From assembly GCF_024298765.1 (NCBI RefSeq), contig NZ_CP101210.1: a stretch of DNA of 64,000 nt, one strand, 5' to 3'. The DNA is from Escherichia coli (GTDB lineage: Bacteria > Pseudomonadota > Gammaproteobacteria > Enterobacterales > Enterobacteriaceae). Made by a program: the position numbers. Positions 35,901-44,900 of this stretch are shown here, one piece after another. Numbering within the stretch: position 1 is the first letter of the stretch; each line of letters begins with the position of its first letter.

Positions 35901-38900
35901 TTATTATCCAATTTTGTAAATACTGCACTACTTAGTCTGAAAAAGTCTCTTACTCTGCTTAATGAGTCAAAAACATTCCACTCATTAAGGTACCCTCCCA
36001 TTGAAAGCAAGGTTTGTTTATTCACACAAGAAGTTAGTTTCAATGGCCCATGAGTCCGTAAATAAGAAAATATTCTTCCGGTGTAATTGGCTACCTCATC
36101 AAATGCCCTATCGATAACTCGAAAATATTCGATATCAGGTTCAGCATGAATATTAATATTTTCAGAAACGATAAATAATGGAAAAATCCTCTTCATTTTT
36201 TTAGGATCATTGACCACAACCAAGGATGATAATGATGATAAAAACATCTCACAAAACATGATGAGATTAAGTATTAATGCATGTGATTTTTTTGTATTTT
36301 TACGCCAAATACCAGCACATTTTGTAGCCGCAAAGAAAGAATTATTTATATCATGCATAATTTTACATTGACTCTCGAACTCAGAGATTAGTTCAATGTT
36401 ATCAGGAAATGAGTTTACTAGCTCATTAATACATTTTTTGAATGTATTGTTATACTCAACTTCAGTCTGAACTGAAAATCTATTATAATAGATGGAAGAT
36501 ATTCTCAGCACATCCAAGGCGATATCTATACTAATATCATTTCTTTTTATGTACTCACAAAAAAAAGAACAAAACTGTTTCGGGTCGTTAGCAAGATTAC
36601 TAATTCTAGTGGTATCATAAACTTTTTCCATTTTTCCATACATCCTATTGTCTAAATTACTATAAAACTAGCCACTTAACTAATAATTATAAATTTCATC
36701 TTTTACACCTTGCATTTTTATAACCAATGAAATCTACAACAAGCAACTGATGGATAATCCGATATTGGTCGCATTTAATGGCATGGTAGCAAAGTTTTCA
36801 TCACATACCTCCTTTGCACCAGAATAAACGCCAGAGATCTGAAATTGCGAGTACACTACAGAAATTGTACTGCCGGTCCCATCAGCATAAAACCATAGTT
36901 ACACAGGTAATCATCATTATTCGCCAAGATAATAAATATTATTCGGTAGAATAGCGTTCTCAGGTGGTCAGTAAAATTGTCTTCAACAAGATGTCTGCGC
37001 ATCTCGTCTGCTAGCCCTACATAACTGCTCTCGACCGAAACTATTTATTGAATGTTCACCAAGGTGGGCGTGGAGACAAAATGACGTCTTTTGATATTAG
37101 CTACCTGAGCCACATGGTCAAAACGTTCAAGTAGCATACCGAAACCACCCTGCCCACGTAATGTGGACGATGCAGCTTCCAGCCAGAGCAAACTTGGGAC
37201 CATCGACTACAAAATGAAGAATACTGAACTGCTTTTCTGGCAGGCCTATATACTGCACGGATATGGGTGATTTCAGACACAAAAAAAGCCGCTCTTGAGC
37301 GACTCGATTTGCATACGGTGTGGTGCGAAGGCCGGACTCGAACATGTGACTTAACCTCATGATTTAAAATTGTTAATAATAAACAATATCATCTTATACC
37401 AACACAGATACCAACACGAAAAATCACTGGTTTTCGGCATCGAACCAGGACAATCAGCTCCTGATTGAGATACCGAGCTCTGTTACTCGTCATCTTCCTC
37501 GACAGGCTTCATTGCATCAAGTAGTACTCGCACCATCGCGATAGAACCAATCCGGATAAAAGCATCTTCTCCATCTATATCTGTTAACTGATATCGCTCA
37601 CTTGATGCCGGATAAGTGTGTCGATTTGCAGCAGTGTACTCTTTTGTACAGCCAGAATGTGGCTGACTGAGGTGGAGCAGATAATGTCCCCGTTGACCAC
37701 TTCCGGACGGGAGGCTGTGATTTCAGACATAATTGATATTCCTTTTTGCAGATAAATGAAAACGCCAGCCCTGTTCAGGCTGGCGTCAGTGGAATGAAGT
37801 ATGGTGAGTAATATTTATCGGTTCTGGTGCAGAAGCTGCAGTTGGCGCAGGGTACGGATACCCTCCCTGGCCTGTTCGATACAGGGCAACAGTGCTGCCG
37901 AATCCGTTTTATCCTCATCGTTGTCAAAGATAATTCCCGATTCGCAGTCGATATTGTCCTGCAGCCACACAATCAGAATATCCAGCGCCGTTTCTGTGGT
38001 TAATGATTTCATCCTGTGTCTTTTGTCCTGGTTACCAGTTGAAAGTGGGTAAATCCTGCAGACATTCAGCACCGGCATCCAGATGAATGAGACTGACGCC
38101 ATAACGTCGGGTAAGTGTGACAACCAGACGACGGAACGTTTTTGACAGGCCCAGCCGTTTAAGTCGCAGAACCGGGTACGACCACGCACCGATACGTAAC
38201 AGATATCCGCTGCCGGTAAAATGAATCCATTCTGATTCGCCGGTGTCATTTGTCTGATGCGACAGCGAGAACAGCCAGGCGTTGTCCCTTTCTGTGATAT
38301 GAGCGGTACTGCAGCGTATGCCGGTAAGGGCGGCAAATGGTAGCGTGCAGTCTGTTGAGGCCCGGTCAGATTCATCAACAACACGAAGGGAGTAACCGTT
38401 ATCGCAGACCACATTAATCAGTTCAGCGAGATTTACACCATCAATGTCAACGACAATGCGCCCCATGTTCAGTGCCTGCACGTTAATGCTGTCGGCTTCC
38501 AGTGTCAGGGAAAGTTTCATTGTTTCGCCTCCGGATGCTTCCCCAGGGTAATGTTATTTACCGTTCTGTAGTTGCTGCGGGTCATCAGACCTGTTGCCCG
38601 GCGTGCCCGGAGAATATCAATGCTGTTGATTAACTGCGACGAAGTTCCTGCGCTGAATCCCGGCTGGTCGGTACGCACCAGCGCGTATTTTTCCACGAGA
38701 AAGTTCACCGCATCACACAGTGAAATGCCTGCCTCAATATGCTGCTCAATCACACGTTCATCAGCGAACGGTGTGTCATTCAGCGTGAGGCCGTAGTGCT
38801 GGTCCAGCAACCGGGTGAGCAGTGTCTGCCAGATGGTGACGGGAGACGGGCAGCGAGATACCTCCCGTACATGTGTGTCGGATAATGTTTTCATCTTAAG

Positions 38901-41900: not shown

Positions 41901-44900
41901 ATCAGGTTCAAAATTCCAGCACCGCCAGCGTAGCTGCCCTTCGGCATTGCGGATAACCAGCCGGAAATGCGTTCCCTGGTCATCCTCAATAAGCACATTG
42001 CGGTAAGCTGTTGTGACGGCAACCGCCTGTTCGCGTGAGAAAGGGCCTTCGGGCAATAAAACAGGGTGGCAGTCCGACATACCGGCTATTTTCCGATAAA
42101 TTCAACGCTGGCGCCGGTGGCATTACCGTCAGCACCAACCGTGACGGTCACTTTGTCGTACGCACGGTCTTCAGGATTGAATACTTCAAACTCAACCTTA
42201 TTGCCTTTTACTTCGTAAGAGCCAAAATCAGCGGTTTCTGTTGTTTCCTCGTCATATTCCCGGGCGTATGCCTGCCGGGCAGCCTGCAGGACGGAATCTT
42301 TATTAATAGTGGTCGTCTGTTTCGGGGAAAAACCGGCAAGTGATGTGACAAATTTCGGACAGACCTTCAGCATATCACCGCGGGTGAATTCCATTCGTAC
42401 ACCAAATGCCTGTAAAACGGACACATCACGCTCTGCTATGGAGTGAACGGCTTTTTTGACCATTTCCGGCGCCTGTCCGATTTCCACCTCAACAGCCCTG
42501 AATCCCGTCTGCTGATTACACATTTGTGATGTGGGGATCAGGTTACCGTTAATACTGATACGGCTGCCCAGGAGCGTCTGTACACCATTCGGGCATCCCT
42601 GCATCAGGCCGGTAATACCAATCGTGCCATTTTTCAGCATTACCAGCGCCTGACCATCTTCCGTCATGGTCTGACACCAGCCGTTTTTGACAGCCCAGTT
42701 GCCGGCGGAGGCGGAGAATGATGCCACAGTGAACAGCAGGGGAAAAAGAGCTCTGGTATTCATGACTGACCTCTGAAATGAACGTACGGTGTTATTGATA
42801 ATGATGGAAGGTATGCAGTGACTGTTCAGGGAATGACGTAGCCGTATATTTAGTTTTCTGTTCAACATATTGTCTCCATACCTGTCGGGACGGCTTTGGC
42901 AGGCCGGCGATCACAGGTTAAAGGTGTTGATAAGTTTATGGATGAAAGAGAAATGTGGCAGGGCGGAGATAAAACGCTCTTCAGCGACCAGACTGTGGAT
43001 GTGGCCTCTCCGTTCAAACCGTTCTGATGTCAGGCTGACTGATTTGATATCTGCCAGAGGAAAGACCTGCAGTTTTCCCTTCTGTAACGCGATCAGATAC
43101 CAGCTACCGCTGTAATAAATGAGCCGGCAGGGCTCCAGTGACGGATACCATCGCTCAGTCATCAGAGAGATGTGGATACACTGTCTTATTGCCAGGATGA
43201 GTTGCGAGAAACACTCGGGGAACGTTGCAGTGATATCCGGCGCCGGTAGCCAGATAAGGCAGGGAGAGGGCTCCTGGTTGTCGGTAAGACAGGTTATCAG
43301 TCGTCCGTTCCGGAGCGGAAGTATCCGTGCGATCCCGGTATTCTGTATAAAAGAAAGCATTTCAGGGATCGCACCTGGGCTGCTCTGTCGTCTGAGGCTG
43401 TACCTGCCATTTCTGTACTCTAAATCCAGGTGAACCAGACGCTGATGAAAATCGCGCTGTAAAGTACGTTCTGTAACGCCAAATTCATCTGACAGTGTTT
43501 TTAGTGACAGAGATTCTCCGGCCATCAGTCGGCTGATAATGAGTGATAAGCGAACCGCCAGGCGATCATGCCGGGAACGATTATCAGACATAGATGTGCA
43601 CTCCGTAAGAAAACATCTTTTATTTCATGATGTTATTATGCATCATGATGTTGAAAGGATGTGTCGCATCCGGATAATCAGGAATAAAATGCAGCAGAAA
43701 AAATATTCTTTTAATTATCTGATTTTTAAGCATGATTTCATAAAAAGAAGAATGCTCGTTAATCCAGCGACACATCCTGTCGGCGTGAGTGTGTCAGAAC
43801 AGACGCTCCCACAGTGTGATCAGCAGGTGGATAATGCGGTCCCGGGCTTTACGCAGAAGCTGTAACATCCAGGCCGGAAAACTGAAACGGGCAACGGCGA
43901 CGTCAAAACTTTTCCCGATGGTTTCACCAAAAGTCTGTTGTGCGTGTTTCTGGGCCTGTTCAGAGCGGTTTTCTCCCCGGATATGTGAATACACCGCGCT
44001 GGTTGCCTGTGGTGGCAGTGCGTGGATCATCAGCGACACAAACGCCGGAAGGTTCCAGCCGACAGGTGCAGCAACGGAGAGTACCGGAAATGATGAAGGG
44101 AACAGGGTTGCCACCCGGGCTGTCACCGTCGCCAGTGAGAGCGACTGCTGACGGGACGGGCATTTTTCTGTGGCATTCCATTCTTCAGCAGGAAACACGC
44201 GATCGGCATGGCTGAGAACAAACAGAAAACGCGAGGGATCTGCGCCTTCATTCAGTAAAAACTGATGCATGGCAATATCAGCAGCATACGCACGTTCATC
44301 AGCCCGCAGGATCCAGATAATCAGATCCAGTTCCGGTAGCAGCTGACGATAAAGTGCCCGGTATTCCTGATCATGCTGCGGTGTTTCACCAATGCCGGGC
44401 AGATCGACCAGCGTCATTCTGCGTTCACCGAGTTGCAGGGTAAGACGATGAGCCTGGCGGGTGCAGCCGTTCAGAGGATGTGTGGCGCAGATACGGGACT
44501 GAAAAATGGCATTACACAGACTGCTTTTGCCTGTACCGGATTTACCCATAATGCCAATCACGGGCTCGTAATGAATAACACAGTGGAGATGTTCAAGGAT
44601 TTTCTGGCGAATTTCTTCAGGAAGAAACGTCAGATATGATTTCACTTGTGCGGAGAGGGAAGAATGGCTGAATGACATACCGTTATCCTGTTGATTTCGC
44701 TGAACCGGATCACACTAATCCGGTTTATCATTCATGTAATATGGACGTGAAAAATGATGGAATGTCTGAATTACAGACATGATCGTTAAAGTGTAATGGA
44801 GTATGAAGTGAGTTTTTCCGAACGGGAACTAATGACATACTGCGGTTTCAGGAGATGAGAGGATGACCGGACGTAAAAACAAATGCGTCAGAAAAAATTG

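Follow-up and report, generated by a model that had tools for sequence, protein, structure and literature searches.

The window analyzed here, a 64,000-nt stretch of Escherichia coli DNA (RefSeq assembly GCF_024298765.1, contig NZ_CP101210.1), is chromosomal sequence in which the uxu, gntP, fim, and nan genes precede a genomic island, and its positions 37815 to 44678 are an intact copy of a well-known twelve-gene block that includes a CbtA/CbeA-type toxin–antitoxin pair. This is an already known and ordinary finding, near-identical copies of the block being annotated in RefSeq. Very probably it is an intact, conserved accessory block located at the attR-proximal end of tRNA-integrated islands with P4-type integrases ("CP4-like" islands) in E. 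coli and its relatives, here at leuX, with the transcription units and roles proposed below.

Calling of open reading frames (ORFs) placed 12 consecutive minus-strand ORFs in the interval, in the order GTPase, HTH-WYL regulator, a 225-aa secreted protein, DUF905, DUF932, ArdB/KlcA antirestriction protein, RadC/JAB protein, DUF987, CbeA, CbtA, DUF5983, and DUF957. All 12 match the lengths of the RefSeq gene models in strain 13TMH22, whose block is 99.8% identical, and hence no ORF looks broken or frameshifted. Nine of the twelve proteins matched Pfam families far above threshold (E 7e-15 to 1e-60). A previous sequence-only reading of this DNA had listed ten gene types in the same order on the minus strand, and ORFs and Pfam together recovered every one of them within the interval, an agreement far beyond chance; the list itself was incomplete, as DUF5983 and DUF957, which it did not name, also belong to the block.

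As that reading had suggested, the annotated genes of CP4-6, CP4-44, and CP4-57 were translated and compared with the block by BLASTP. Alignment to the CP4 families had been claimed beforehand and was borne out for 10 of the 12 proteins, which matched K-12 block proteins at E≤1e-17 with 36 to 98% identity; the 225-aa protein and the DUF957 protein had no counterparts in the three K-12 blocks. The RadC protein was 98% identical to YeeS, 82% to YkfG, and 78% to YfjY/LfgB, the DUF987 protein 92% to YeeT, the antitoxin 94% to CbeA, and the toxin 86% to CbtA, whereas the remainder was more distant, with the antirestriction protein at 70% to both YafX and YfjX, the DUF932 protein at 74% to YfjQ and 75% to YafZ, the DUF905 protein at 62% to YkfF, the regulator at 43% to YfjR, and the GTPase at 36% to YfjP and 35% to YkfA. 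The DUF5983 protein was 69% identical to YeeW over 55 aa, the alignment being this short because K-12 YeeW is a 64-aa stub. As the toxin-proximal half is thus closest to CP4-44 (86 to 98% amino-acid identity) and the rest is more distant, the window copy is a mosaic.

Conservation of the CP4 gene order, also claimed beforehand, held for one half of the block only. The core running from antirestriction through RadC, DUF987, and antitoxin to toxin is ordered as it is in CP4-6 and CP4-57, and CP4-44 agrees with it from RadC on. The GTPase-proximal half, however, is unlike CP4-6 and CP4-57, in both of which DUF932 directly follows the GTPase gene rather than DUF905. CP4-44 (yeeP ... yeeS-yeeT-cbeA-cbtA-yeeW) shares the order and orientation of the toxin-proximal half, but has flu (Ag43) and yeeR between its GTPase gene and yeeS, a GTPase pseudogene, and a truncated YeeW where the window encodes a complete DUF5983 protein; antirestriction, DUF932, DUF905, WYL, and DUF957 genes are missing from its annotated block, as is an integrase. 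CP4-57 (yfjP-yfjQ-yfjR ... yfjX/lfgA-yfjY/lfgB-ypjJ-yfjZ-ypjF) shares the GTPase, DUF932, YfjR-type regulator, antirestriction, RadC, DUF987, antitoxin, and toxin genes, and likewise has its block at the att-distal end of an integrase-bearing island. Its proteins are only 36 to 78% identical to those of the window, its block is split by the cargo genes yfjU, yfjV, and yfjW, and DUF905, DUF5983, and DUF957 are lacking. CP4-6 (ykfA-yafZ ... yafY-ykfB-ykfF-yafX-ykfG-ykfH-yafW-ykfI) is a contiguous, co-oriented block of the same families, including DUF905 (YkfF), beside tRNA thrW, but lacks the WYL regulator, DUF5983, and DUF957, and its toxin is 61% identical. The window's own gene order recurs in other E. 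coli islands and on the Klebsiella pneumoniae IncFIB/IncHI1B plasmid NZ_CP021699.1, where order is identical from WYL through DUF957 at 50 to 77% amino-acid identity (slot genes apart), including 50% for a "WYL domain-containing protein" and 74% for the DUF957 protein. Unlike the island, this replicon is a conjugative plasmid, and it has no GTPase gene. The slot between regulator and DUF905, occupied here by the 225-aa protein, holds the lipoprotein gene yafY and ykfB in CP4-6, ypjK-yfjS-yfjT in CP4-57, and genes for DUF4234 and hypothetical proteins on the Klebsiella plasmid.

The position of the block within its island was established from the att site and from related genomes. A repeat of the 3' end of the tRNA-Leu gene leuX, resembling attR, is located 470 bp beyond the block's last gene and is followed by further similarity to the sequence downstream of K-12 leuX. 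A pattern search for the leuX 3' end allowing up to three mismatches returned no match, because the window copy carries a 1-nt deletion. In strain 13TMH22 the adjacent 4-kb block is missing, and homology between this strain and the window picks up again precisely at 37322. The opposite end of the strain's island has a tyrosine integrase gene next to tRNA-Leu and ahr, approximately 2 kb beyond the window's end; integrase and tRNA-Leu are therefore known from the collinear 13TMH22 and lie outside the window. Together, the attR-like repeat, the homology break, and the integrase with tRNA-Leu at the far end identify the block, on sequence evidence, as the attR-proximal (distal) end of an island at leuX that spans roughly 29 kb. 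In agreement with this, the block does mark the island type, as the sequence-only reading had proposed, and with the repeat it provides a landmark that fixes where the island ends distally, at about 37.3 kb, and sets its cargo (from 44.8 kb on) apart from a second block of low GC (32.3 to 37.3 kb). Consistent with the variable cargo slots which that reading expected, genes of low GC that match no family sit on both sides of the block, and the downstream side varies between genomes.

What separates the block from attR is limited to fragments of a DUF4942 gene and an HTH gene. The DUF4942 gene is full length in CP057032.1, a 62-kb circular record that carries the same block at 93.7% identity. 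In this record (positions 9517 to 12194), the integrase gene is joined to the DUF4942–DUF957 end across a site containing TTCGATTCCGAGTCCGGGCACCA, which we take to be a tRNA-Phe 3' end. CP057032.1 has the appearance of a sister island, using another tRNA site, in its excised form.

The toxin matched CbtA_toxin (PF06755) with 202.8 bits against a cutoff of 25 (E 1e-60), covering 112 of 112 profile positions, and the antitoxin matched CbeA_antitoxin (PF06154) with 181.3 bits against a cutoff of 27 (E 6e-54). Their genes are neighbors on the same strand, separated by 46 bp, and the antitoxin gene comes first. By homology to K-12 CbtA and CbeA, the toxin would bind FtsZ and MreB and so block division and elongation, and the antitoxin, without binding the toxin, would counteract it through the bundling of FtsZ and MreB filaments. 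Such bundling is reportedly what defines the type IV class, a definition said to go back to Masuda and colleagues in 2012. In the K-12 homologs, to which these experiments are confined, toxin overproduction leads to growth arrest and lemon-shaped cells, and the antitoxin neutralizes the toxin without binding it (PMC5624674, PMC5371832). The K-12 pairs YkfI/YafW and YpjF/YfjZ are likewise toxic and neutralized, and they are encoded near prophage attachment sites (PMC5371832). Alignment with the K-12 toxins showed that F65 is conserved in the window toxin; its replacement by serine abolishes FtsZ binding in CbtA and alters the phenotype in YkfI and YpjF (PMC5624674).

Among complete E. coli genomes, 5004 of 5426 carry the block or parts of it, with three places in the median genome, and at least 80% of it is present in 1742. 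This presence in more than 90% of genomes makes it notable that most of the genes (those for the GTPase, WYL regulator, DUF905, DUF932, DUF987, DUF5983, DUF957, and 225-aa proteins) have no demonstrated function. The K-12 counterparts are annotated as the cryptic prophages CP4-6, CP4-44, and CP4-57, 8 of the 10 proteins scanned belong to PHROG families, and the island of the nearest genome has an integrase beside a tRNA at its flank. One could therefore regard the block as the decayed remnant of a P4-like satellite prophage whose genes are leftover phage functions. We consider this highly improbable, as the block matched only one unannotated 3.2-kb record among 50,697 phage records, and neither the island portion of the window nor its annotated relatives showed capsid, tail, lysis, or P4 replication genes. 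Moreover, the PHROG matches are nearly all to families of "unknown function", the antirestriction protein being assigned to "anti-restriction protein" (E 4e-62), and the same genes are common on plasmids, parts of the block matching at least 5000 plasmid records, of which 4328 are conjugative. The name "cryptic prophage", used in the sequence-only reading, is thus a historical one, nothing in the block being demonstrably phage-derived. In composition the block resembles an establishment or anti-defense set more than phage debris, a likeness only.

Returning to the accessory-block reading, gene spacing and two hairpins would divide the block into four transcription units, namely the GTPase gene alone; the WYL regulator, secreted protein, and DUF905 genes; the DUF932 gene alone; and the genes from antirestriction through RadC, DUF987, CbeA, CbtA, and DUF5983 to DUF957, the last unit thus including the type IV toxin–antitoxin pair. 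Across the sequence, promoter and terminator counts were not above those of shuffled sequence, and these two strong hairpins stand out; an Rfam scan of 32 to 50 kb at E≤0.1 returned no families. There is a 4-nt overlap between the toxin stop and the DUF5983 start, suggesting that the genes downstream of the toxin are co-translated. Within this arrangement, the toxin–antitoxin pair may penalize loss of the island, and the ArdB/KlcA, DUF932, RadC/JAB, DUF905, and DUF987 proteins would most likely aid establishment in a new host, since ArdB-type proteins block type I restriction and a DUF932 homolog lies in the first-entering region of IncF plasmids. The gene content and its intactness, the homologies, the location beside the att site, and the broad distribution are direct results; toxin activity, antitoxin mode, operon structure, and the stabilization and establishment roles are inferred.

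The plasmid homologies also raise the question of whether the resemblance goes further, with the block acting as the functional counterpart of a plasmid leading region. Under such a scheme, the island would be integrative and mobilizable, with transfer starting near its attR end so that these genes enter the recipient first and act against restriction and other defenses. Leading regions are enriched in co-oriented anti-restriction and toxin–antitoxin genes (PMC11541004), both classes are present here, and all twelve genes share one strand, with transcription running towards the att end. In R100-1, a DUF932 gene whose product is 63% identical to that of the window lies in the leading region, between traM/oriT and hok/psiB, and is likewise transcribed towards oriT amid co-oriented small genes that include the toxin system hok. 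In almost all matching plasmids, conjugative ones included, the match comes from the DUF932 gene, with a DNA identity of about 70%, and the Klebsiella plasmid carries the syntenic block as a whole. In addition, YagK/YfjJ-family genes related to inovirus gpII lie nearby; these might encode island nickases. We nevertheless hold this explanation to be unlikely. A BLAST comparison of the window with the oriT and leading region of R100, the one oriT type searched, gave a match to the DUF932 gene only and none to the oriT itself, and in the R100-1 region examined this is the only gene shared, psiB and hok being present there and CbtA/CbeA, RadC, DUF987, and GTPase genes absent. No relaxase, ssb, or psiB gene was found beside the block, the Klebsiella copy is flanked by tellurite and efflux genes rather than transfer genes, and the circular relative CP057032.1 is typed as non-mobilizable. 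Quite unlikely is the fuller version, in which the block is the leading region of an excisable, mobilizable leuX island that a YagK/YfjJ protein perhaps nicks, and the toxin–antitoxin, ArdB, DUF932, RadC, and small DUF genes form one establishment program; were it true, the 225-aa secreted protein would be exchangeable cargo in an internal slot.

The flanks bear on a third alternative, that the CbtA/CbeA pair, perhaps joined by the GTPase and the WYL regulator, protects against phages by abortive infection and is not an addiction module. Restriction-type genes (HNH, phosphorothioate-dependent, and Mrr-type endonucleases) flank the block, WYL regulators often accompany defense systems, and toxin–antitoxin systems are often defensive. 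Yet no PADLOC model matched the toxin, the antitoxin, ArdB, or any DUF protein, the GTPase gave only a marginal LeoBC match with no passing stretch, and the block carries an anti-restriction gene, the opposite function. An abortive-infection role is accordingly very unlikely in our judgment, and the conserved accessory block with a putatively stabilizing toxin–antitoxin pair is preferred.

Several observations weigh against this preferred interpretation. The N-terminal 14 residues of the toxin differ from those of K-12 CbtA, and residue 15 is Cys, as in YkfI and YpjF, with Arg at 14; R15C in K-12 CbtA abolishes MreB binding (PMC5624674), yet YpjF, with a natural C15, binds MreB. A toxin blind to MreB and acting on FtsZ only was considered from C15 and rejected on account of YpjF, and residue 15 yields no prediction because YkfI and YpjF naturally have C15 and YpjF still binds MreB. 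We infer the activity of this toxin copy from homology only, and the physiological role of CbtA-type toxins is unsettled in the literature. Neither an R100-like oriT nor relaxase, ssb, or psiB genes were found next to the block, which leaves two or three gene families as the basis for the establishment role. Finally, the GTPase, the regulator, and the 225-aa protein are without an assigned role.

Of these three, the 225-aa protein had been labeled a lipoprotein, and this label was not upheld. Its signal peptide ends in FSASA|GNW, with the AxA|G motif of a signal-peptidase-I site conserved across 20 aligned homologs, which also share four invariant cysteines in the mature part. A lipobox ([LVI][ASTVI][GAS]C) is absent, the first Cys being residue 30 in the mature part, and BLASTP gave no match to YafY, YfjS, YkfB, or YfjT at E≤0.01. 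Lipoprotein identity is ruled out by the AxA|GNW cleavage site and the missing lipobox cysteine, and the protein is best described as secreted or periplasmic. No matches were obtained in Pfam, NCBIfam, PADLOC, or PHROG, and its homologs are confined to Enterobacteriaceae, all named "hypothetical".

The GTPase retains the P-loop GKSGTGKS and DLPG motifs and matched MMR_HSR1 with 55.5 bits against a cutoff of 21.9 (E 7e-15). The regulator has the HTH-WYL layout, with an N-terminal HTH followed by a WYL domain, as judged from its profile matches: Pfam WYL scored 23.7 bits, narrowly over the cutoff of 21.8, PADLOC WYL models gave E 2.6e-18 (64 bits) and 3.9e-6, and HTH_11 reached 23.1 bits, under its cutoff of 25. 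The arms of the 15-nt inverted repeat bracketing the spacer between these two genes are 93% complementary, and the repeat marks a possible operator or promoter region. It was not found upstream of divergent homologs (one related locus and K-12 yfjR). The RadC protein has a complete H-x-H-x7-S-x2-D metal-binding motif (HNHPSGEVTPSKAD), read from the translation, and a published study describes its K-12 homolog YfjY as the protease LfgB (PMC10846083). The DUF957-labeled protein had no match in NCBIfam or in the Pfam copy used, its label resting on RefSeq.

Table. Coordinates of the block genes, associated sites, and neighboring features in the window
Feature	Position	Strand	Basis or remark
HNH endonuclease, 216 aa	32313-32963	minus	
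Phosphorothioated-DNA-dependent restriction endonuclease	33043-33972	plus	NCBIfam, 438 bits
682-aa orphan protein	34595-36643	minus	No Pfam, NCBIfam, or PADLOC match
attR-like repeat of tRNA-Leu leuX 3' end, GTTCGAGTCCGGCCTTCG-CACCA, one base missing	37321-37343	minus	Sequence reading and alignment
DUF4942 gene remnant	37587-37736	minus	RefSeq pseudogene labels in relatives, mapped to the window
Terminator-like hairpin, 11 pairs, then T-run	37761-37787	minus	After last gene; consensus scan
DUF957-labeled protein, 65 aa, last gene of block	37815-38012	minus	RefSeq label
DUF5983 protein, 162 aa, full-length form of K-12 YeeW	38032-38520	minus	Pfam DUF5983_N (113 bits, E 4e-33) and DUF5983 (74 bits, E 9e-21)
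CbtA/YeeV-family toxin, 125 aa	38517-38894	minus	Pfam CbtA_toxin
CbeA/YeeU-family type IV antitoxin, 124 aa, GTG start	38941-39315	minus	Pfam CbeA_antitoxin; RefSeq cbeA
DUF987 protein, YeeT-like, 73 aa	39395-39616	minus	Pfam DUF987, 129 bits, E 5e-38
RadC-like JAB/MPN metalloprotease, YeeS-like, 158 aa	39703-40179	minus	Pfam RadC, 153 bits, E 5e-45
ArdB/KlcA-type antirestriction protein, YafX- and YfjX/LfgA-like, 159 aa	40194-40673	minus	Pfam Antirestrict, 126 bits, E 8e-37
DUF932 protein, YfjQ/YafZ-like, 272 aa	40939-41757	minus	Pfam DUF932, 169 bits, E 1.6e-49
Terminator-like hairpin, 13 pairs (9 G-C), then T-run	41797-41826	minus	Just after DUF905; consensus scan only
DUF905 protein, YkfF-like, 77 aa	41847-42080	minus	Pfam DUF905, 109 bits, E 1e-31
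225-aa secreted or periplasmic protein	42086-42763	minus	Signal peptide, 20-homolog alignment
HTH-WYL transcriptional regulator, YfjR-like, 226 aa	42911-43591	minus	Pfam WYL, PADLOC WYL
15-nt inverted repeat GAAAGGATGTGTCGC / GCGACACATCCTGTC	43653-43781		Brackets AT-rich GTPase–WYL spacer
GTPase, YeeP/YkfA/YfjP family, 294 aa	43794-44678	minus	Pfam MMR_HSR1; RefSeq "GTPase"
YagK/YfjJ-family protein, intact, 243 aa	47499-48230	plus	Related to inovirus gpII replication initiator
292-aa protein, Mrr-type restriction endonuclease catalytic domain	48558-49436	plus	Pfam Mrr_cat, 26 bits; no PADLOC match
YagK/YfjJ-family fragment, 125 aa	51113-51490	plus	Related to inovirus gpII replication initiator

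Outside the block, the segment at 32313 to 37320, bounded by an intact nanS on one side and by the attR-like site on the other, forms a separate low-GC block whose second half has 32 to 34% GC, and it is partly or wholly missing from the nearest genomes. On the other side, a plus-strand ORF of 376 aa and 34% GC (44863 to 45993) diverges from the GTPase gene; it had no Pfam, NCBIfam, or PADLOC match and is conserved beside the block in related islands and in CP057032.1. Further into the island, astA (49587 to 49703, plus strand), encoding the 38-aa heat-stable enterotoxin EAST1, is embedded in transposase remnants. A 1.3-kb insertion at 54039 to 55355, absent from 13TMH22, encodes a 402-aa DDE transposase that is presumably IS10-like; the insertion interrupts the gene for the first fimbrial subunit in the PapB-regulated chaperone-usher operon of the island (N-terminus at 53901 to 54083, C-terminus at 55449 to 55751).

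In the chromosomal part of the window, a 1057-bp insertion between nanC and nanM (29251 to 30307), absent from the two closest genomes, encodes a 322-aa IS5-family DDE transposase and has the size of IS903. The minus-strand fimA gene (24192 to 24795) appears frameshifted, its N-terminal part (24436 to 24795) and C-terminal part (24192 to 24494) lying in different frames, and is either a real pseudogene or the product of a sequencing error. Between fimA and fimE, a segment of about 320 bp (24854 to 25176) is inverted relative to 13TMH22, consistent with an oppositely oriented fimS phase switch.

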